From Prochlorothrix sp. (GTDB lineage Bacteria > Cyanobacteriota > Cyanobacteriia > Prochlorotrichales > Prochlorotrichaceae), in contig JAYKJG010000348.1 of NCBI GenBank assembly GCA_035286285.1, positions 1-24,000 on the forward strand: a DNA stretch of 24,000 bases, given 5' to 3'. Positions 13,399 through 22,304 of the stretch are shown here, piece by piece. The translations under genes were made by a program, and so were the position numbers. The notes under the pieces are model-generated. The model did not search any database and was not told the origin of the DNA. It was given only the letters and a program-made list of their open reading frames with translations. Positions within the stretch are counted from its first letter, which is position 1, and the number at the start of each line of letters is the position of its first letter.

Positions 13399-13544
13399 GG
13401 TTTAGGGATTTGCTAGGGAAATTACGGATATGCTTATCCTAGCTTGCTTGGTCGTTGCTGCTATTGTGGGCAGATTGCTCTGCGAGGGAGGTTAAGGAGA
13501 GGTGGGATCCCAGGGGCCGACGATCGCCTCACCTGTTTCGTTTC

Positions 13545-13640
13545 GTCATGCTCCTCACCGACTCCCCTAGCATCCGCGATGTCATCGCCTTTCCCCTCCT
13601 CCGCCCCGAAAAAGCTACGATTGCTGATGGTAATGTCTAG
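13545..13640 (+). pseudogene. lysS: Orphan 3'-terminal fragment of lysyl-tRNA synthetase (last ~30 codons only)
   Basis: It translates to [51 protein letters not shown] is the conserved class-II LysRS C-terminus (compare E. coli ...[22 protein letters not shown]). No synthetase body lies upstream, where sequence runs into the divergent ABC gene promoter. A GGGGG-AGCTG-CCCCC hairpin followed by T-rich sequence sits at 13686-13716. Confidence 0.7.
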
Positions 13641-13755
13641 CCCGCTGAGGTGAATGCCGAATCGTGATCGTTCTCCGCTATAATTGGGGGAGCTGCCCCC
13701 TTAACCTTATTCTTTCAGCCTTTAATTGTCCTACTCACACCTACTAGAGGCTCCT

Positions 13756-14877
13756 ATGGGACTTCAAGAAGAACTAGAGCAAAAACGCCAAGAAATTCGG
13801 ACAGACTCTTACTCTATGTCCGTCGGAGAATTGATCAGTCTTTACCAAGGAAAGGAAATTGAGATTCATCCCCAGTTTCAACGGTTCTTCCGATGGTCTA
13901 CAACCCAGAAAACCCGTTTTATTGAGTCTCTCTTGATTGGTTTGCCGATTCCTCAGATTTTTGTCTCTCAGAGGAAGGATGGAGTGTGGGATGTTGTGGA
14001 TGGCCTACAGCGACTGTCTACGATTTATGAGTTTGTTGGGATTCTCTGCGATGAAACAGGTGAACGGAAAGCACCCTTGATCTTGGAGCAAGGGGAAACA
14101 CTACCATCCCTGAAGGGTAAAAAGTGGGAGGATGGCTATGATCCTGATAACTCCCTAACAAAGGCTGAGCGCCTCTTGATCAAGCGGGCCAAGCTGGAGG
14201 TTGCTATCCTAGTCCAAGGGAGCGACCCGAATGCACAGTATGAATTATTTCAGCGTCTCAATACAGGCGGATCGATTGCGACGGACCAAGAGATTCGCAA
14301 CTGTCTTCTCATTATGGCGAATCCAGATACCTATGACTATATCAAGGATCTCAGTAGCAATGAGCACTTCAAAGACTGCATTGCTTTATCTGACAAGGCA
14401 AGCGCTGAACAGTATGATTTAGAGCTTGTTTTAAGATTCCTGCTCTTTCGGACCATTCCAGAGGAGAAGCTCAAGAAGATTCCATATCCCGACATCAGCG
14501 ACTACCTCACCTATTGTATCCGTCAAGAGATCATTAAGGATCCCGATGACTATGAACGGGATAAGGAAGCCTTCACCACAACCTTTGCCTTGCTAGCGGG
14601 AAGCCTTGGCGATCGCAGCTTCCGGAAGTACTATCCTGCGCAAGATCAGTTCAAAGGAGGCTTTCTCGTCTCTGCATTTGAAGCGATCGCCTTGGGTATT
14701 GGTTACAACTACGATCGGCTCTGTACCCAATCCCTTGACCTAGAGGCAAAGGTAAAAGACCTCTGGCATAATCCGTGCTTCACCAATGCCTTAGGTGGAT
14801 CCTCCAAAGGTAGCATCAGCACTCGCAAGCGATTACAAACGATCTTACCCGTAGGGCGGGAACACTTTAAGGTATGA
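13756..14877 (+). CDS. DUF262 domain protein (ParB-like/GmrSD N-terminal NTPase-type domain) without a DUF1524 nuclease domain
   Basis: Motifs are IHPQFQRFFRWSTTQKTRFIESLLIGLPIPQIFV and WDVVDGLQRLSTIYEF, the DUF262 QR...W / DGxQR signature. No His-Me/HNH motif is visible in the C-terminal ~230 aa. I prefer the start at ATG 13756 with tagagg upstream; the track start is 13726. Confidence 0.85.
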   Translation: MGLQEELEQKRQEIRTDSYSMSVGELISLYQGKEIEIHPQFQRFFRWSTTQKTRFIESLLIGLPIPQIFVSQRKDGVWDVVDGLQRLSTIYEFVGILCDETGERKAPLILEQGETLPSLKGKKWEDGYDPDNSLTKAERLLIKRAKLEVAILVQGSDPNAQYELFQRLNTGGSIATDQEIRNCLLIMANPDTYDYIKDLSSNEHFKDCIALSDKASAEQYDLELVLRFLLFRTIPEEKLKKIPYPDISDYLTYCIRQEIIKDPDDYERDKEAFTTTFALLAGSLGDRSFRKYYPAQDQFKGGFLVSAFEAIALGIGYNYDRLCTQSLDLEAKVKDLWHNPCFTNALGGSSKGSISTRKRLQTILPVGREHFKV

Positions 14878-15524
14878 GCAAGGTTCGGACTCTGGAGGAT
14901 CTTAGCAACCGCTTGAATGACGATCTGACTTGGCGTAAGCGGGAACTATCTAAACTAAAGGCAATGATTGAAACTGAGCGGTCTGATATGGAGCGCAGTC
15001 GTGTTTTGTTACGGAGTGGCTTGACTCTGTTATATGCCCATTGGGAAGGCTTTATTAAAGAGGCCGGGTCACTATACTTGGAGTATGTGGCAATGCAACG
15101 GCTCAACTACGATCAACTGACTAGTAATTTTCTGGCACTGGCTTTTAAGAAACGTCTAGCGGAGGTGAATGAGACCCATAAAGCAACTATCTATACCACA
15201 AGCTTAGACTTTATCCGGTTTCAACTGTCTCAACGTAGCCAGATACCCTACAAAGAAGGTATAAGAACTGGATCCAACCTTTCTTCAGAGGTACTCAAGG
15301 AGATTATTTGTATCCTGGGATTAGAGTATGACTTCTATGAAACGAAGCAGAAACTGATTGACACAAAACTGCTTGCAAAGCGGAATCAGATTGCCCATGG
15401 TGAATACTTAGACCTAGATGCTGAGGACTATGCAGCACTACAGAAGCAAATTATCACCATGATCGATCACTTTAAAGCTCAAATTGAAAATAATGCTTCT
15501 CAAGAAAAGTATAAATCGCCCTGA
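14874..15524 (+). CDS. HEPN-type predicted RNase (resembles the MAE_28990/MAE_18760 HEPN-like nuclease family)
   Basis: 216-aa all-helical ORF with the Rx4H motif in AKRNQIAHGEY near the C-terminus. Its ATG overlaps the DUF262 stop (ggtATGAgc, 14874-14877). Confidence 0.8.
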   Translation: MSKVRTLEDLSNRLNDDLTWRKRELSKLKAMIETERSDMERSRVLLRSGLTLLYAHWEGFIKEAGSLYLEYVAMQRLNYDQLTSNFLALAFKKRLAEVNETHKATIYTTSLDFIRFQLSQRSQIPYKEGIRTGSNLSSEVLKEIICILGLEYDFYETKQKLIDTKLLAKRNQIAHGEYLDLDAEDYAALQKQIITMIDHFKAQIENNASQEKYKSP

Positions 15525-15873
15525 TCCCATAACTCTAATATGAACTGCTTGTAATACTGAAGTAGCTCAGACTAAATAAAGGGAGGTATGGGCTACAGCA
15601 GAATAATAGTTTCAGCGACCTTAAGTGCCCATTACTTTCCCCGATCTACTTATGCTTACATCAACACCCGATGGCATGACTGCTTCTTACTCCTTGCTCA
15701 CCCAAACCCAGTAGCATATTTTTCCCTAGGCGCTCCAACGCCTTCTGTCTCCCTGGGTACTCCAGGGGCCTTGCACTGGACACAGAGCCTCTGAAAGACG
15801 TTCCTGCACTGAGCCGGGGAACGAGAGAACAGACAGTACTGACAGCTAGCATCTCCCCCAGCTTAACTTTGGC

Positions 15874-16668
15874 TTAACTGGACTCCAGGTGAGGGTCTGT
15901 TTGGAGGATCGTCAGGATCTCAGTTTCAAATGCTTGTGCCTGGGAACAGCATTGCTTAAGATTTTGCCAATTTTCGGTGACTTTTGGTGCATAAACCCGA
16001 TAATTTCGGACACTTTTCTTGATTCGTTGTTGTTTTGGCAACTGCGCTAGCCGTTTCTCAACCTTGGGATCGCATTCACCCCCTTGCAAACAGGGGTGAC
16101 TTGGCGGTAGGACCGCAGTTGCTAACCAAGTACCCGAAGATTGGGCAGGTAAGCAGAAACAAGTTTGGTTTCCTGGTATTGCCTGTCCTAGCCAACTCCG
16201 AATGACTTCTAGAAGTGAGGTAACCGTTGCGGACACTGGGGGACATGGCTGCTGACAAGGCAGGCACTTCCAAGCGTTGTCTTGAGCCATCTTTGAGAAA
16301 TAAGGTTCATCCTTGGGATCGTAGTCTTGATACTCAAAGCCTCCCACATCTACATCTACGTGAATAATCAATAAGTCAAAACAAGCCAGGGTTGGATCAA
16401 AATCGAGAGAGCCTTGATGTCGCTTTTGAGTCTCGTGGCACCATTTGGCGACCCCGCCCCAACCTGTCCCTAGCCGGGGCTGAGTGGCCTCTGGTTGCAG
16501 TAAGGTCAGGACAAAGGGATTGGGTAAAATTGCCTTGAGAGCAGCCTGAATCACTTCTAAATCCCCTGGTCCTTCAGCAACTAAAGCAATGCGTAGAGTT
16601 CTATTGAAGAGCTTGGGGAGGATGGTAGACTGTTTGCTGGGCAGCGTTGGATCTGTGGCCTCAGACAT
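15874..16668 (-). CDS. TOPRIM-like protein (DUF4276/DUF4435/RloB-like) with a Cys-rich insert
   Basis: Near the N-terminus is RIALVAEGPGDLEV (an EG..D/E motif). About 70 aa later comes LLIIHVDVDVGG (an acidic DxD cluster), as in OLD-type TOPRIM partners of ABC ATPases. The insert reads WKCLPCQQPCPP...CFCLP...HPCLQGGECDP. I prefer ATG 16668, which overlaps the ATPase stop by 8 nt (ATGTCTGA). The track start 16683 is a TTG. Confidence 0.65.
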   Translation of the reverse strand: MSEATDPTLPSKQSTILPKLFNRTLRIALVAEGPGDLEVIQAALKAILPNPFVLTLLQPEATQPRLGTGWGGVAKWCHETQKRHQGSLDFDPTLACFDLLIIHVDVDVGGFEYQDYDPKDEPYFSKMAQDNAWKCLPCQQPCPPVSATVTSLLEVIRSWLGQAIPGNQTCFCLPAQSSGTWLATAVLPPSHPCLQGGECDPKVEKRLAQLPKQQRIKKSVRNYRVYAPKVTENWQNLKQCCSQAQAFETEILTILQTDPHLESS

Positions 16669-17890
16669 GGGGGACGGCTCCAAGGTGGCCCATTAGCCAC
16701 AGGCGCGAAAGGGGATACTGTTGGTTGAGATCCAGCAGTTGGGCGTTGAGGGTAAGGCGTTGGATGACAGTTTGGCCGTTACTATTACGATCGACGGCAA
16801 ACAGACGCACCTCTGGATCGCCTAGGTCCAGACCATCAAGGGCAGCCGGGTTATGAACCGTAAAGAGAATCTGGCGATCGGGGCTACTATGAACTAACCA
16901 ACTGGGCAAACGGGTGATTAGTGCCCTCAGCAGGCGGGGATTGAGGGCTTGATCGAGATTGTCGATCGCTAAGGTTTGGGGGGCTGGGGGCAATAGGCAC
17001 AGTAGCGCGGTAAACAGAATATACAGTGCCCCTTCACTGGCATCGTAGGCAGTCAATTCATTGCGGCTTTTCTGCATAAACCGATCGCTAAATTTCAAAA
17101 TTTCTTTGGTACGGGGAACCTTCGGGGAGAGGAGTTTTGCCCCATACCGAATCGTCTCGATGTCGGCTACCCAGTCAATTAGCTCTAGAATTTGCTCAAA
17201 AATGACTTCTGACTGGTTTTCAGAAGCCATTGCAAGGTCTTTTGAGTCACTGTCGGCTTTTGCCTCAAGATATTGCCGAAGACTTGCAAACCCCTCCGCC
17301 AGTTGACCGCCATTGAGTCCTACGGGAGTGCGGGACTGCTGATCAGGAACAATCCCCCGTAGGGTTGGTGTGTTAGGGCAGTAAATGGCAAAGTCTCGGA
17401 GTTGCTGTATGAGTTGGTTTGCAGGGCTGTCGCGTGCCAAATTGACCAGTTGTAGGGCCGCGAGTCCTGCTTGGGGATTGAGATTTTTCTGACTTCGCAC
17501 ACCACTGGCAATAATCTCAGTGGTGCCATCATGGAGCACTTCTGTTTTATAGGACCAGGCTGGATCAGGGGAATCAATGGGATTGAGGAGGGAAACCCGG
17601 TAAAAGGCTTGGCTCTCGCTAGTGGCCTCGATCGTGATGTGGGGAGGAGTGCGATCGGACCGAAAGGAGCTTTTATAGAGCCGTGGCAAGCTAGCCCGAA
17701 CCCCGCGCCGGAGCAAACTTTCATCGTCTACAACGCCATTGGCAGCGGCTCCCAGAACCCCAAGGGCTTCTAAGACATTACTTTTGCCGACTCCATTGGC
17801 TCCAATCAAACAGTTCAGCCGACCCAGTTCCAACTTGGCCTGGTAAATAGACTTGAAGCCCTGAATTTTAACCTGGCGAATCATGCCCAT
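16661..17890 (-). CDS. ABC/OLD-type AAA ATPase (AAA_21/AAA_15-like, COG-type 'predicted ATPase')
   Basis: Motifs are IQGFKSI...LNCLIGANGVGKSNVLEAL (Walker A), SEGALYILFTALL (signature-like), LAIDNLDQALNP (Walker B/D-loop), ILFTVHNP (H-loop) and the C-terminal LSRLWLMGHLGAVP. Confidence 0.88.
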   Translation of the reverse strand: MGMIRQVKIQGFKSIYQAKLELGRLNCLIGANGVGKSNVLEALGVLGAAANGVVDDESLLRRGVRASLPRLYKSSFRSDRTPPHITIEATSESQAFYRVSLLNPIDSPDPAWSYKTEVLHDGTTEIIASGVRSQKNLNPQAGLAALQLVNLARDSPANQLIQQLRDFAIYCPNTPTLRGIVPDQQSRTPVGLNGGQLAEGFASLRQYLEAKADSDSKDLAMASENQSEVIFEQILELIDWVADIETIRYGAKLLSPKVPRTKEILKFSDRFMQKSRNELTAYDASEGALYILFTALLCLLPPAPQTLAIDNLDQALNPRLLRALITRLPSWLVHSSPDRQILFTVHNPAALDGLDLGDPEVRLFAVDRNSNGQTVIQRLTLNAQLLDLNQQYPLSRLWLMGHLGAVPHV

Positions 17891-18101: not shown

Positions 18102-19463
18102 ATGAGCGACTCCCGTCTTGATCCTGTAACTGCAACGCATTCCCTGCTGGCGCAAACTCAGCAGCATTTGCAAGCGCTGTTGCAACGCTATCAAGCCCAA
18201 ACTCAAGCCCAGCCCCGATCGGCCCATACCCCACCTAACCCAACCCTGGGAGCCAGTTACCAAGGCCAGATCGATCGCCTCAGTACCCTAGTGCATAAAC
18301 TAGAGCAGCGGATTGTGACGATCGCCGCCTTTGGCTTGGTCAGTCGGGGCAAGTCGGCGGTGCTGAATGGGTTGCTGGGGCAGAAGTTGTTGGAGACCGG
18401 GCCGATTAATGGGGTGACGCGGTGGCCCCAGACGGTGCGCTGGAGTGGGCCACAGTTGGGGGGATTTCAGGTGGATTTAGTTGATACACCGGGTTTAGAT
18501 GAAATTGAGGGGCAAAGCCGGACAGCTATGGCGAAAACCGTGGCTCAACAGACGGATTTGATTTTATTTATTGTGGCGGGGGATGTGACCCGCACTGAGT
18601 ATGAGGCCATCCAAACCCTCCTCCAGTTCCAAAAGCCGATTCTGTTGGTGTTTAACAAGACAGATCTCTATCCCGTGACCGATCGGGCTGAAATTTTAGC
18701 AAAATTGCGTCAATTTTTGGTTAACCAAGGGGAAACTGCTGAATCTCTAACGTTATCCACCGCCGATGTTCTCCCTGTTGCCGCAGAGCCTGCCCCGCTC
18801 CAGGTTCGCATTGAAGATGCAACGGGAACCGTAACCCAAACCTGGGAAACCCCAGCGGCCCAAATGGGGGAGTTGGCCGATCGGCTCAGCCAAATCCTCC
18901 TCCAGGAAGGAGAACAACTGCTCGCCCTCAATGCTTTGGTCCAGGCCCGCAGTGCGGCGGAAACCTTAGCGCAGGTCCAAATTCAGACCCAAAATGAGCA
19001 AGCAGAGCAGGATTTGAGTCGGGTTGTCTGGACTAAGGCGGCGGCGATCGCCCTCTGTCCGGTGGGGCTGGGGGATTTGGCCGTGGGAGCGGTGCTGGAT
19101 TTGGTGGCGGTGCGGACCTTGGCCCAGCGCTATGGGTTGCCGATGACGCGGCATCGGGTGGGGCGACTGTGGCAGCGCTGGTTGGCCAGTGGGGCGATTT
19201 TACTGCTGGGAGAGGGGTTGAGCCAGGGATTTTTGGGCTTGAGCTTGGGGGAGAGCGGTCTAGCGGCCTGGGGTGGGGCGGGGCTAGTGCAGGGGCTGGC
19301 AGCGGCCTATGGAGGCTATCAGGTGGGCCGATCGGCCCAGGTCTATTTACAGGAGGGTTGTACCTGGGGGCCGGAGGGTGCAAGCTGGCTCATTGAGGGG
19401 ATTTTGTGCCAAGCTACGCCCCAGGGGGTCATTGCCCGGTTACGGCAGTTGGGGGCTGGCTAA
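18102..19463 (+). CDS. GTP-binding protein with a C-terminal Gly/Ala-rich hydrophobic (DUF697-like) region
   Basis: G1 is GLVSRGKSAVLNGLLG, G3 is DLVDTPG and G4 is VFNKTD. The C-terminal ~130 aa are hydrophobic (AAAIALCPVGLGDLAVGAVLDLVAV...). Confidence 0.85.
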   Translation: MSDSRLDPVTATHSLLAQTQQHLQALLQRYQAQTQAQPRSAHTPPNPTLGASYQGQIDRLSTLVHKLEQRIVTIAAFGLVSRGKSAVLNGLLGQKLLETGPINGVTRWPQTVRWSGPQLGGFQVDLVDTPGLDEIEGQSRTAMAKTVAQQTDLILFIVAGDVTRTEYEAIQTLLQFQKPILLVFNKTDLYPVTDRAEILAKLRQFLVNQGETAESLTLSTADVLPVAAEPAPLQVRIEDATGTVTQTWETPAAQMGELADRLSQILLQEGEQLLALNALVQARSAAETLAQVQIQTQNEQAEQDLSRVVWTKAAAIALCPVGLGDLAVGAVLDLVAVRTLAQRYGLPMTRHRVGRLWQRWLASGAILLLGEGLSQGFLGLSLGESGLAAWGGAGLVQGLAAAYGGYQVGRSAQVYLQEGCTWGPEGASWLIEGILCQATPQGVIARLRQLGAG

Positions 19464-20025
19464 CAACCGAAACCTCGACAATTTCACGGCTATCCCGGTT
19501 CAATGCCAACCCAAGCCAACGTTGGCGTGTCGCCCCTGTGTTGCCCACCGGATGAATACAGTCCAGGGATGGGCTTTTTTAACGATTGGCCGTAGGCTCG
19601 ACCCCCCGATCGAGGCCCAGTGCCGTCCCAAACCCCAGGACATTCCACCTCCCTTAAGCTGAGAGACTTAGATCTCGACCAGATTGACAGAAACCGGCAT
19701 CAATGGAGGAATTCCAGATCGGTCTTTAGGGGTATGTTATGCTCAAGCAAGATGGAGCGGTCTCTCCCGGAAACTACTGAGAGAACCCCCAGCGAGTCCT
19801 CCTGAGGACACCGGGTCAGCCCAGTTCTGCCTGGGACACGATCACCGAAATCAGCGTTGCAGTGAAGGGCCAAGCGGTCCCTTCCCCTTATCTTGAACAC
19901 CCTGACTGAGCAACCCTCTCTAAAAATCTTCTGGACTGGGTTCGATCGTCCACCCGATCCATACCTTGTCTAGCATCGGGTTCATCCTCAGCCAGTCATT
20001 TCCCCTGAAAGGGTCTACTTTTCCC

Positions 20026-20766
20026 ATGTCTACCCAGCGCTCCCACGCTTTGCCCTATACCCCAGTTTTGGTGGTACAGGATGGTCCCCACCAGTTCTCG
20101 CTGCCCCTAGAGCGTAATCTCTACACCTTGGGCCGGGATCCTCTCTGTACGATTACCCTACGATCGCCCTATGTCTCCCGCCTCCATGCCACCTTGATCT
20201 ATCGCTGCGATGAACCCTGGGACAGCAATGGCCACGGCTACTACGAGCTAATTGATGGGGATGGGGGCGAAATCCGCAGCCGCAACGGCCTGCTGGTCAA
20301 TCGGCATAAAATCCAACAACATACGCTCTGCTTAGGGGATGAAATTGACCTCGCACCGGATGTGCATCTCACCTATACCATTACCCCCAGTGACCTCAAC
20401 CGGCTGGTGCTCGACGAAGCCTATTGGTTTGATGCGCAGTCGGAGTCCGGCGATCGCTCGGAACACTCCCAAGCCCTCCGACAACTGTGGCAACGGCTCC
20501 AACAACAAGCCCCCCGCAGTGCCAACCAATATGTGCCCCAAGAAAACAACCATCACCAACTGCCCTCCTACGAAACCCTCCGACTTCAGGCTTACCAAAC
20601 CCCAACCCGCCCTGTACCCCTCAGTGAAGTTCCAGCAGCGGACCTAGAAGCGAGTGTCATCTGTGTGTATCCCGGCTCCTTCACCGGGGAAGAAGAAGAA
20701 GCGGTGATTATGCTCGATAAGAGCGCAGCCTATCAACTCCTCCAGGACCAAGACACCCCACCCTAA
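20026..20766 (+). CDS. FHA domain protein
   Basis: The FHA core reads YTLGRDPLCTITLRSPYVSRLHATLIYR...SRNGLLVNRHKIQQHTLCLGDEIDL. I prefer the start at ATG 20026 (MSTQRSH...); the track start is 19966. Confidence 0.85.
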   Translation: MSTQRSHALPYTPVLVVQDGPHQFSLPLERNLYTLGRDPLCTITLRSPYVSRLHATLIYRCDEPWDSNGHGYYELIDGDGGEIRSRNGLLVNRHKIQQHTLCLGDEIDLAPDVHLTYTITPSDLNRLVLDEAYWFDAQSESGDRSEHSQALRQLWQRLQQQAPRSANQYVPQENNHHQLPSYETLRLQAYQTPTRPVPLSEVPAADLEASVICVYPGSFTGEEEEAVIMLDKSAAYQLLQDQDTPP

Positions 20767-20798
20767 ACCGGCTCGCAACCCATCCCGATTGCAGTGCC

Positions 20799-22304
20799 TC
20801 AAGACAGGAGAGGGGTGCCAATTTCAAGGCGGTTGCGGCCCTTGGCCTTGGCTTGGTAGAGGGCACGATCGGCGCTGTCCACAATCTGCTGCGGGGACAG
20901 GGCTGCCGTCGGAATCACCGTAACCAAGCCCAAGCTGAGGGTGAGACAGTCCCCCACCGAAGAGCCGCGATGGGGAATTTGCAGGGCTTCAAGATTGGCC
21001 TGGAGGCGTTGGGCCACCTGCTGCGCTCCCTCAGAGGGGGTATAGGGCAAAATAACCGCAAATTCCTCACCCCCATAGCGGGCTGCTAAATCCATCGGGC
21101 GATGGCTAGCCTGGGCAATGGTTTGGGCCACCTGTTGCAAGCACCAATCCCCTTGGGGGTGGCCATAGCGATCGTTATAGGCTTTGAAATAGTCAATATC
21201 GCACAGCAGCAGCGACAACGGTTCCTGCTCCAGCAGCAGGGTTTTCCAGATCTGCCCCAGGTACTCATCCAAGGCGCGACGATTGGCCAAGCTGGTGAGA
21301 CTATCGACATTGGCCAGGTGCCGCAACTCCTGGTTCAGCAGGCGAAGCTGACTGTAGAGACTGGCCTGTTGAATTGCGACCTCCAACTGTTCCACCACCC
21401 GTGTGATCACCTGTAACTCCTCTGGGGTCCAGGGAGCATCCACCTCGCAGCGGTGAATAATGAGCGCTCCCCAATGTTCCGATCGCTGAAAAATCGGGGT
21501 AATCATTTCCGCCTTCACCTGCCACTGCGCCAGCGTTTCCTGATGCTGGGCTGAAACGGGTTGCACCGTTGCGTTGTGTGGAGGGAACCCGCCCGCCTGC
21601 ACTAACGAAGGAGAGCGGTCCAAGCTCGTGTGAATCCAGGGACAGTCTTCCAGGGTTAGGCCCAGCAAGGAACAGGACCCCTCGGTTAAAGACTCAGCCA
21701 CAATACGGCCCGGTTGGGTCTCTAGGGTTGGATCGGGGTTGAGGGTGTCTACCTCGGTGCATTGGTAAATCAGCACCCGATCGGCCTGGAAATAGGCCCG
21801 CACCGCTGCGGCTGTATTGGTCAGCAAGCTCTGCAATTCCAGGGATTCCAAGGTTCCCTGGGCAATACTGCGAATCAGCCGCTCCTGCTGTAGCTGCCGT
21901 TGGTTCCAGTCCTGGAGATACTTCAGTTCTAAGTGAGTTTTAACCCGCGCCAACAGTTCGGGCGCATTAAAGGGCTTGGTGATGTAATCGACAGCCCCAT
22001 GGGAAAATGCTTCTAACAAATGGGCCGGTTCATGGCTTGCGGTCAGAAAAATGACCGGAATGCTCTGAATCTCAGGATTCTGCTTGAGGCGGGTACACAC
22101 TTCTAGGCCATCAATGTCGGGCATCATCAGATCTAAAAGGATCAAGTCTGGGCGGGCTGTGATTACCCGTTCAAGTGCTTGTTCGCCATTTTTAGCAAAA
22201 GTGACTTTATAGCCTCTATTTTGCAGAATCTCGCCTAAAACCCGAAGATTCGAGGTAATATCATCAACAATCAGGACTAATGTATCGGCAGGATTCATAG
22301 CCAT
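20799..22304 (-). CDS. Response regulator with REC, GAF-like and GGDEF domains (diguanylate cyclase)
   Basis: REC is LIVDDITSNLRVL...LILLDLMMPDIDG...VIFLTA. A central GAF-like region follows (AVRAYFQADRVLIYQC...GRIVAESL). The GGDEF domain has LTSLANRRALDEYL and the active site RYGGEEFAVIL. RPMD sits 5 residues upstream (RxxD I-site). Confidence 0.92.
   Translation of the reverse strand: MAMNPADTLVLIVDDITSNLRVLGEILQNRGYKVTFAKNGEQALERVITARPDLILLDLMMPDIDGLEVCTRLKQNPEIQSIPVIFLTASHEPAHLLEAFSHGAVDYITKPFNAPELLARVKTHLELKYLQDWNQRQLQQERLIRSIAQGTLESLELQSLLTNTAAAVRAYFQADRVLIYQCTEVDTLNPDPTLETQPGRIVAESLTEGSCSLLGLTLEDCPWIHTSLDRSPSLVQAGGFPPHNATVQPVSAQHQETLAQWQVKAEMITPIFQRSEHWGALIIHRCEVDAPWTPEELQVITRVVEQLEVAIQQASLYSQLRLLNQELRHLANVDSLTSLANRRALDEYLGQIWKTLLLEQEPLSLLLCDIDYFKAYNDRYGHPQGDWCLQQVAQTIAQASHRPMDLAARYGGEEFAVILPYTPSEGAQQVAQRLQANLEALQIPHRGSSVGDCLTLSLGLVTVIPTAALSPQQIVDSADRALYQAKAKGRNRLEIGTPLLS

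Follow-up and report, generated by a model that had tools for sequence, protein, structure and literature searches.

A PDC-M31 gene pair of Prochlorothrix, an ABC-type ATPase with a Toprim-like partner, as a candidate conflict module

What kind of system is encoded by two adjacent open reading frames (ORFs), an ATPase gene followed by a partner gene, on the minus strand of a 24,000-nt stretch of Prochlorothrix sp. DNA (hereafter the window, the whole stretch that was analysed)? The initial annotation had read them as an ABC-type ATPase with a split-off Toprim-like partner that carries an unusual cysteine insertion, and had considered a new variant. Our analysis supports well that the pair is a tightly linked two-gene module and a member of PDC-M31. 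By analogy, and with a probability of roughly 0.62, we read it as a stand-alone, horizontally mobile conflict module in which an ABC ATPase controls a separate Toprim-type effector, providing an abortive defence similar to that of PARIS or HEC-01. The two genes and their junction are as follows.

16661..17890, minus strand: PDC-M31A, a 409-residue ABC-type ATPase (AAA_21/AAA_15, OLD-ABC-like); ORF with an ATG start, PADLOC and Pfam matches.
15874..16668, minus strand: PDC-M31B, a 264-residue DUF4276-like, Toprim-type putative nuclease partner; ORF from ATG, PADLOC match.
16661..16668, minus strand: the 8-nt start/stop overlap ATGTCTGA, a translational coupling seen in the sequence.
[quoted passage not shown]

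Both ORFs lie where they had first been placed, with the 8-nt overlap, and all the motifs then quoted are present: GANGVGKSN, SEGALY, LAIDNLD and TVHNP in the ATPase, and VAEGPGDLE (residues 30-38), HVDVDVGG (residues 103-110) and the seven cysteines in the partner. At the junction, ccATGTCTGAgg, the ATG of the partner and the TGA of the ATPase share 8 nt, and the identical overlap occurs in the Arthrospira, Aeromonas, Chlorobiaceae and Enterobacter copies. An upstream TTG offers an alternative start for the partner, giving 269 residues. Homologues of the partner begin MSELRIALV, and the window protein consists of MSE, 21 additional residues and then LRIALV; its residues 1-15 have a pLDDT below 50 in the AlphaFold2 (AF2) model. 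The NCBI entry that is 100% identical to the partner, from a Prochlorothrix sp. metagenome-assembled genome, is annotated as 'hypothetical protein'. The pair coincides with a local GC dip; promoter and terminator scans of the operon gave chance-level results only, and no Rfam families were found near it.

Classification with the PADLOC hidden Markov models (HMMs), a check suggested with the initial annotation, assigned both proteins to PDC-M31 over their full length. The ATPase matches the PDC-M31A HMM with an E-value of 2.7e-186 and 617 bits (its residues 3-409 cover positions 1-395 of the 395 in the profile), while the partner matches the PDC-M31B HMM PDLC04571 with an E-value of 8.9e-97 (residues 25-255 against positions 4-230 of 233) and also the PDC-M31B models PDLC04572 and PDLC04573. 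For the ATPase, the remaining PADLOC systems score far below M31A: HEC-01A 3.4e-26, AriA 2.9e-19, AbiLi 1.9e-18 and NsnB 4e-15. In Pfam, the ATPase matches AAA_21 (2.6e-21) and AAA_15 (2.7e-9), and the partner gave zero matches in Pfam and NCBIfam even at E <= 1. PDC-M31 is defined by adjacent, co-directional A and B genes, and this is the arrangement of the window pair, with its 8-nt overlap.

The possibility of a new variant falls away, since PDC-M31 has been catalogued as a candidate since PADLOC-DB v2. It corresponds to cassette CAS_00126, with 102 occurrences (Payne et al., bioRxiv 10.1101/2024.01.29.577857), and the PDC systems as a whole are 145 candidates without a functional test, predicted from their embedding in BREX, DISARM or Type I restriction-modification (RM) loci (bioRxiv 10.1101/2024.01.29.577857).

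Do the two genes belong together beyond chance, as had been claimed? Clustering at 90% leaves 432 homologues of the partner, and clustering at 50% leaves 813 representatives; across 75 orthologues the ATPase keeps its motifs invariant. An ATPase orthologue lies directly upstream of the partner, on the same strand, in 80/80 genome loci, the gap between the genes ranging from -22 to +8 nt. These loci span at least nine phyla, the phyla listed being Cyanobacteriota, Pseudomonadota, Chlorobiota, Verrucomicrobiota, Planctomycetota, Actinomycetota, Acidobacteriota, Spirochaetota, Bacteroidota and Armatimonadota. ATPase and partner identities correlate across 69 loci (r = 0.94), which indicates co-divergence. 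The distribution of the pair is patchy and shaped by horizontal transfer, with copies on plasmids, in islands and within RM operons. Lack of linkage, or of conservation of the acidic residues of the partner, had been named as grounds for dropping the split ABC-ATPase/Toprim-like assignment; linkage was found at every locus, and 96-98 of the 98 representatives retain E32, D36, D105 and D107.

The motifs of the ATPase were counted in the 75 orthologues, which were taken from the genome loci.

17777..17803, minus strand: Walker A GANGVGKSN, residues 30-38; G30, N32, G33, G35, K36, S37 and N38 invariant (75/75).
17021..17047, minus strand: ABC signature-like YDASEGALY, residues 282-290 (SEGALY 285-290); E286, G287 and L289 in 75/75, S285 in 73/75.
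16937..16975, minus strand: atypical Walker B/D-loop TLAIDNLDQALNP, residues 306-318 (LAIDNLD 307-313), with Asn311 in place of the catalytic Glu.
16835..16867, minus strand: H-loop LFTVHNPAALD, residues 342-352 (TVHNP 344-348); T344, N347 and P348 in 75/75, H346 in 72/75.

The Walker B motif had been correctly located at LAIDNLD, but it reads D-N and not the canonical D-E. The M31A consensus at this site is h-A-I-D-N-L-D-Q-A-L-N-P, with Asn at the Glu position and an acidic residue always at +3; D310 is found in 74/75 orthologues, and N311, D313, N317 and P318 in 75/75 each. The D-N form is also common to the sister ATPases that are paired with DUF4276-labelled proteins, in contrast to the canonical D-E of P2 Old (FIDEPELYLHP). 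In PARIS, the catalytic Walker B glutamate of AriA is E393, and the E393A mutant is ATPase-dead (PMC11464382). Given the replacement of this Glu by Asn with Walker A and signature intact, hydrolysis is probably slow and the ATPase would act as a switch rather than as a motor; Asn311 thus suggests ATP binding with little turnover. A family-wide D-N Walker B appears to be undescribed.

For the partner, motifs were counted in 98 diverse representatives (27-56% identity), and cysteines and position 179 in 217 family members. Two motifs bear on its Toprim character.

16561..16575, minus strand: Toprim motif 1, E32-G-P-G-D36, directly after beta1 (residues 25-30); E32 97/98, G33 97/98, D36 96/98.
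16348..16362, minus strand: Toprim motif 2, H103-V-D105-V-D107 (DxD), directly after beta3 (residues 99-103); D105 98/98, D107 96/98, H103 77/98.

The defining layout of a Toprim domain is a Glu after beta1 and a DxD after beta3 (PMC6755086). The AF2 model of the partner (pLDDT 82, predicted template modelling score 0.82), with a beta-alpha-beta-alpha-beta-...-beta-alpha core, has E32 immediately following beta1 and D105-x-D107 immediately following beta3. E32 and D36 align with E9 and D13 of a DUF4276-labelled sister family and correspond, by motif order, to E400 and E404 of Burkholderia OLD (BpOLD; PMC6755086). In a scan of each of the 98 members against Pfam, all hits being below threshold, DUF4276 appeared in 11, OLD-like_TOPRIM in 4 and Toprim in 2, and no other family recurred. 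The Pfam search once advised for the partner gave no direct match: the gathering threshold of DUF4276 (PF14103), 30.2 bits, is not reached by the partner, and the best E-value among the 98 representatives is 0.0026. It did bring out the relation to DUF4276, as the M31B family aligns with the DUF4276-labelled sister family in hhalign with a probability of 99.4% (E 1.6e-21, 174 columns) and with all motifs in register.

This sister family connects M31B to the described Toprim proteins. Its ATPases are about 30% identical to the window ATPase and still have PDC-M31A as their top match (2.3e-79), and partners on plasmids bridge the two families. One sister partner clears the Pfam DUF4276 threshold (31.6 bits) and matches M31B at 4e-9, and an intermediate Acinetobacter partner matches DUF4276, RloB, AbiLii (4.3e-4) and M31B at once. 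According to a published description, DUF4276 and RloB belong to the Toprim proteins and retain the catalytic Glu and the DxD (PMC12065111). Many of the DUF4276-like sister-family members are named 'phage tail protein' in NCBI and UniRef, which, because of their ATPase pairing and Toprim motifs, is probably a propagated annotation error.

Fold searches against solved structures are weakly supportive. A Foldseek search of the PDB with the M31B model gave generic Rossmann-like folds only. The top fold match in BFVD is an RloB-like protein (probability 0.90, E 0.013), and the model of the sister family (pLDDT 93) finds Thermus OLD third in the PDB (probability 0.89, E 0.079) and GajA fifth. PDB sequence searches with the family profiles A2, A3 and A4, the intermediate partner and the ATPase gave chance-level matches only. 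Among them, UBE2L3 resembled positions 138-209 of profile A3 (E 0.35), its E2 active-site loop 'VCLPVISAENW' recalling C-L-P-x-x-S-x-E-x-W; we judged this to be chance, since it does not fit the strand-helix context predicted for the region. A single-sequence hhalign of M31B against the Toprim part of P2 Old aligned the right motif without significance (probability 2.7%). The homologue search with P2 Old for an OLD-Toprim profile yielded 5 sequences only; tblastn with P2 Old found none in plasmids and only P2 itself in phages, and phmmer none in about 1 Mb of loci. The homology of M31B to DUF4276-like Toprim proteins is well supported. Our conclusion is that M31B belongs, as a divergent member, to the DUF4276/RloB/OLD Toprim assemblage and falls beyond the limits that Pfam now draws for its families; confirmation at the level of the fold, which would be a four-stranded parallel sheet (order 2-1-3-4) superposable on a solved Toprim domain, is incomplete.

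How, then, would such a pair work? The preferred reading, a PDC-M31 conflict module, starts from what the loci themselves display: the gene structure, linkage, co-divergence, motif conservation, DUF4276-like homology and location in defence islands or RM operons. By analogy with PARIS and HEC-01, M31A and M31B, co-translated through the 8-nt overlap, would form a complex that keeps M31B inactive, with an ATP-bound ATPase oligomer sequestering or controlling the Toprim-type nuclease. The variable insert in the middle part of M31A (about residues 85-280) would sense an infection cue, while ATP binding would set the state and slow hydrolysis would give it a switch behaviour. M31B, once released or activated, would cleave nucleic acid (tRNA/RNA or DNA) at the acidic metal site formed by E32, D36, D105 and D107, leading to growth arrest or abortive infection. 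Complex formation, trigger, substrate and defence phenotype are thus what we infer from these relatives; the defence function is plausible from the genomic context and from one positive HEC-01 test, in which a representative protected E. coli from phage (PMC12881386).

A number of observations weigh against the conflict-module reading. No mention of PDC-M31 was found in the papers searched and no PDC-M31 experiment is on record, and HEC-01 gave no defence in a first test (bioRxiv 10.1101/2024.01.29.577857). M31 copies were found neither in IMG/VR viral contigs, nor in PHROGs (searched for the partner), nor in a phage collection, and, unlike PARIS, the M31 pair is not evidently phage- or satellite-borne. 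The window partner fails every Pfam Toprim-type model. The Asn of Walker B could mean zero ATP turnover. Finally, the subclade of the window partner is without the glutamate of the ExW motif, a presumed metal-B ligand, and the chemistry may differ; only S175A co-varies with this loss, and no compensating acidic residue is found in the subclade. The site in question is the following.

16126..16155, minus strand: end of beta4 and motif C172-L-P-A-Q-S-S-G179-T-W181 (family consensus C-x-P-S-x-x-x-E-x-W); C172 212/217, W181 98/98.

Position 179 is E or D in 89/98 representatives; in the larger set it is E or D in 98/217 sequences and G in all 119 of the window's subclade. In BpOLD, E508 is a direct metal-B ligand, and the loss of one metal site leaves nicking only (PMC6755086). 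An OLD-type metal-B site calls for an acidic residue at i+4 from the Glu and for an S/T-x-E after beta4. At i+4, D36 is present in 96/98 representatives; the acidic residue of the post-beta4 ExW is Gly in the window protein. The equivalence of position 179 with E508, and of D36 with E404, was drawn by motif order and not by structural superposition. With the ExW Glu replaced by Gly, window-type proteins may use a reduced metal site. A reading in which the partner of this subclade is a Toprim protein with reduced catalysis or none, one that nicks, or binds nucleic acid or protein, and is not a processive nuclease, or in which the toxicity resides elsewhere, would accommodate both the uniform G179, accompanied by S175A alone, and the behaviour of BpOLD. 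It has to contend with the motif-order nature of the E508 comparison and with the rest of the acidic site: E32, D36, D105, D107 and E198 are essentially invariant in the G179 subclade, which covers several phyla at 55-63% identity, and this argues for strong selection on the site. Weighing the two, we consider a reduced Toprim unlikely, if worth keeping in view. The loss of the ExW glutamate in the window's subclade appears to be undescribed.

Is the cysteine-rich stretch of the partner an unusual insertion, as first proposed? The conserved positions of the family are listed here, together with C172 above.

16438..16440, minus strand: C77, in the G-W-G-G-V-x-K-W-C motif of helix alpha2; 198/217, aligned with the invariant C53 of the sister family.
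16237..16263, minus strand: M31B-specific motif L-P-C138-x3-C142-P-P, in the beta3-beta4 connector; C138 197/217, C142 202/217.
16072..16074, minus strand: C199, in an E-C motif, coupled to C142; 207/217.
15946..15948, minus strand: C241, in the C-S-Q-A-x-x-F-E motif of the C-terminal helices; 200/217.

The partner has 11 cysteines in total against a family median of 8, which puts it in the top 4% of the family. Each of C77, C138, C142, C172, C199 and C241 occurs in 91-98% of the 217 members, while C96, C135, C170, C193 and C240 are lineage-specific (each in at most 5/217), four of these five sitting 1-6 residues from a conserved cysteine. Of the seven cysteines of the stretch (C135, C138, C142, C170, C172, C193 and C199), four are therefore family-conserved and only C135, C170 and C193 belong to the lineage. 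The DUF4276-labelled sister family shares C77 and C199 and is without the LPCxxxCPP motif and C172, and its corresponding region is diverged in sequence and no shorter. Since the cysteines are conserved in the family and the region is no longer than in the sister family, the idea of an insertion has to be abandoned.

The pattern of cysteine loss is informative on their possible role. All representatives without C199 (10/10) are also without C142, with diverse replacements, and most of them retain C138 and C172; of those without C172, 3/4 are also without C138. Such pairwise loss disfavours a single Cys4 zinc site and favours two independent cysteine pairs, and the joint loss of C142 and C199 appears to be undescribed. 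Judging from the topology, C138 and C142 (just before the helix into beta4) and C172 (end of beta4) should lie on the catalytic edge of the sheet. One could go further and take PDC-M31 as a mechanistically distinct OLD-like branch, in which a hydrolysis-impaired ATP-binding switch would be combined with a Toprim gated by a cysteine metal or redox element near the active site (C138, C142, C172 and C199, with C142/C199 as a coupled pair), and in which the window subclade would use a one-metal chemistry. We hold this to be a doubtful proposal; if true, effector activation would be tied to the redox or metal status of the cell, which is undescribed for any ABC-ATPase/Toprim system.

Relatives of the pair are found in surroundings typical of conflict systems. 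The Aeromonas pair sits inside a Type I RM operon that belongs to an integrase island, the order being HsdM-HsdS-DUF262-GmrSD-[M31A-M31B]-HsdR. In Arthrospira and Chlorobiaceae it adjoins toxin-antitoxin clusters (HicAB/HigB/PIN), and on the conjugative plasmid pE5_001 of Enterobacter hormaechei (NZ_CP042572.1, 4905-13185) it lies between TraI/DsbA-family genes and a cluster of SAVED-domain, hypothetical and ThiF-family genes that looks CBASS-like.

Could the pair be a housekeeping one instead? In RecR a Toprim domain is joined to a Cys4 zinc finger, RecF belongs to the ABC-type ATPases, and a DNA-repair pair of this kind with a cysteine-based metal site would resemble ours in outline; in addition, the N-terminus of the ATPase matches NCBIfam recF (E 5.4e-9). 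This match reaches, however, 35.7 bits where the cut-off is 172, and it is confined to the Walker A region. The patchy, horizontally transferred distribution, the plasmid, island and RM-operon copies and the local GC dip further speak against housekeeping, as do the indications that, within any single clade, the majority of genomes lack the pair. We regard a RecF/RecR-like role as highly improbable.

The same surroundings allow a selfish reading, in which the pair is an addiction module of the toxin-antitoxin type or serves competition between mobile genetic elements, for instance against plasmids and not against phages. The Pfam name of the ATPase family is 'putative AbiEii toxin, Type IV TA system', and copies reside in toxin-antitoxin-rich islands and on a conjugative plasmid. 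Mobilizable plasmids of 5.8-12.8 kb (Paracoccus pMARC2 and small Acinetobacter plasmids) moreover have very few cargo genes, and sister ATPase and DUF4276-like pairs are among these, a position that hints at an addiction or plasmid-competition role. The embedding in a Type I RM operon and the very definition of PDC point instead to defence, and the related HEC-01 pair is protective against phage (PMC12881386), although both roles are compatible. We see addiction or element competition as the less expected role, with a small share of the probability.

Turning to the neighbours within the window, two defence-type genes are convergent with the pair, on the opposite strand, between 13726 and 15524. 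The flanking features are listed in order of position.

13455-13640, plus strand: short ORF at the left edge of the cassette, its end matching the final 20 positions of Pfam tRNA-synt_2 (class II D/K/N aminoacyl-tRNA synthetase; E 6.5e-4).
13726-14877, strand opposite to the pair: DUF262/GmrSD_N protein; PADLOC NsnA 5.5e-62, PD-T4-2_A 4e-32.
Within 13726-15524, strand opposite to the pair: HEPN_MAE_28990/RiboL-PSP protein (Pfam), translationally coupled to the DUF262 gene.
18102-19463, plus strand: dynamin-like GTPase with DUF697.
19966-20766, plus strand: FHA-domain protein.
20799-22304, minus strand: response-regulator/GAF/GGDEF-like protein, recognised by eye only.

The DUF262 and HEPN genes are held in a low-GC segment of 2368 bp (13444-15811) that is exactly missing from a 99.9%-identical contig of another sample, in which the pair is retained. 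The cassette is therefore independent of the pair, and it is a discrete, independently mobile defence-type indel; terminal repeats and a target-site duplication were not found at its junctions. The ORF at 13455-13640 looks like a leftover 3' fragment of an aminoacyl-tRNA synthetase gene carried with the cassette, and the genes from 18102 to 22304 appear to be ordinary chromosomal ones outside the island.

The cassette invites the idea that the pair and the adjacent NsnA-like DUF262 and HEPN genes make up one Menshen-like system, as the neighbour matches NsnA and the ATPase matches NsnB at 4e-15, NsnC effectors can be DUF4276 Toprim domains (PMC12065111) and two DUF262 genes also precede the Aeromonas pair. 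We rejected it as largely refuted and give it next to no weight: the DUF262-HEPN genes are convergent with the pair and lie on the opposite strand inside the indel, a DUF262 homologue was found by tblastn at only 1/80 loci, and the ATPase has no DUF3696 match and scores far higher with M31A than with NsnB.

What does the assignment of this locus to PDC-M31 contribute? As immune architectures, ABC-ATPase and Toprim modules (OLD, Gabija, PARIS, AbiL, HEC-01) rank with the most widespread in bacteria, and few are understood mechanistically. PDC-M31 emerges as a large family of strictly two genes, with an orphan partner now placed in the DUF4276/Toprim clade, and with concrete targets for mutation: K36, N311 and D313 in the ATPase, and E32, D36, D105, D107, position 179, C142/C199 and C138/C172 in the partner. 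If the D-N Walker B and the cysteine pairs are functional, ATP binding without turnover, or the redox or metal state, can gate a Toprim effector; otherwise, the pair is one more catalogued candidate.

Compared with the known systems, the window pair has the gene order and adjacency of PDC-M31 and matches its HMMs over the full length, with nothing structurally different; the window copy adds the 21-residue disordered N-terminal extension and five extra cysteines. The closest clade to M31B is that of the DUF4276 (PF14103) partners of AAA_21/AAA_15 ATPases, which include MADS Mad3/Mad4 and Menshen NsnC effectors. Of the comparators first put forward, ATPase/DUF4276 pairs are indeed the nearest, whereas PARIS and AbiL did not hold for the partner, which has no AriB/DUF4435, AbiLii or RloB match. 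M31B and its DUF4276 sister share the same order of motifs (EGxTD, LQP, G-G...C, IIHxDxD, a strand and ExW); M31B differs by its own LPCxxxCPP and C172 and by the missing ExW glutamate in the window subclade, and the window partner has no PF14103 match at E <= 1. From Menshen (NsnABC), a co-directional operon with DUF3696 in NsnB, the window differs in that its NsnA-like gene is on the opposite strand and inside the indel, and a search of the window ATPase for DUF3696 gave no match. As for AbiL and RloB, the window ATPase matches AbiLi at 1.9e-18, and the window partner gave no match to AbiLii or RloB models.

The OLD family (P2 Old, Thermus and Burkholderia OLD, Gabija GajA) likewise combines an ABC ATPase with a Toprim domain carrying an acidic E, E/D at i+4, DxD and a later E. 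OLD proteins are, however, one fused polypeptide with a canonical Walker B D-E, whereas M31 is made of two genes and has D-N (75/75). HEC-01, an ABC ATPase with a TOPRIM partner, has the same architecture as M31, and both were defined from the same ATPase super-family FAM_00005; HEC-01A is the second-best match of the ATPase (3.4e-26, residues 3-386). The window partner has no match to HEC-01B at E <= 1, and only the sister DUF4276-like protein matches it (3.3e-5). PARIS, composed of the ABC ATPase AriA and the DUF4435 Toprim AriB, is split in two genes like M31. Its AriA models match the window ATPase at 2.9e-19 over a part (residues 267-352) and at 1.8e-12, compared with 2.7e-186 for M31A, AriA has the Walker B glutamate E393 where M31A has Asn, and the window partner gave no match to AriB or DUF4435 in Pfam and PADLOC at E <= 1. 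In PARIS, sensing depends on Walker A, and the Toprim glutamate E26 of AriB is essential (PMC11464382). By analogy of architecture, PARIS is the best-understood mechanistic template for M31.

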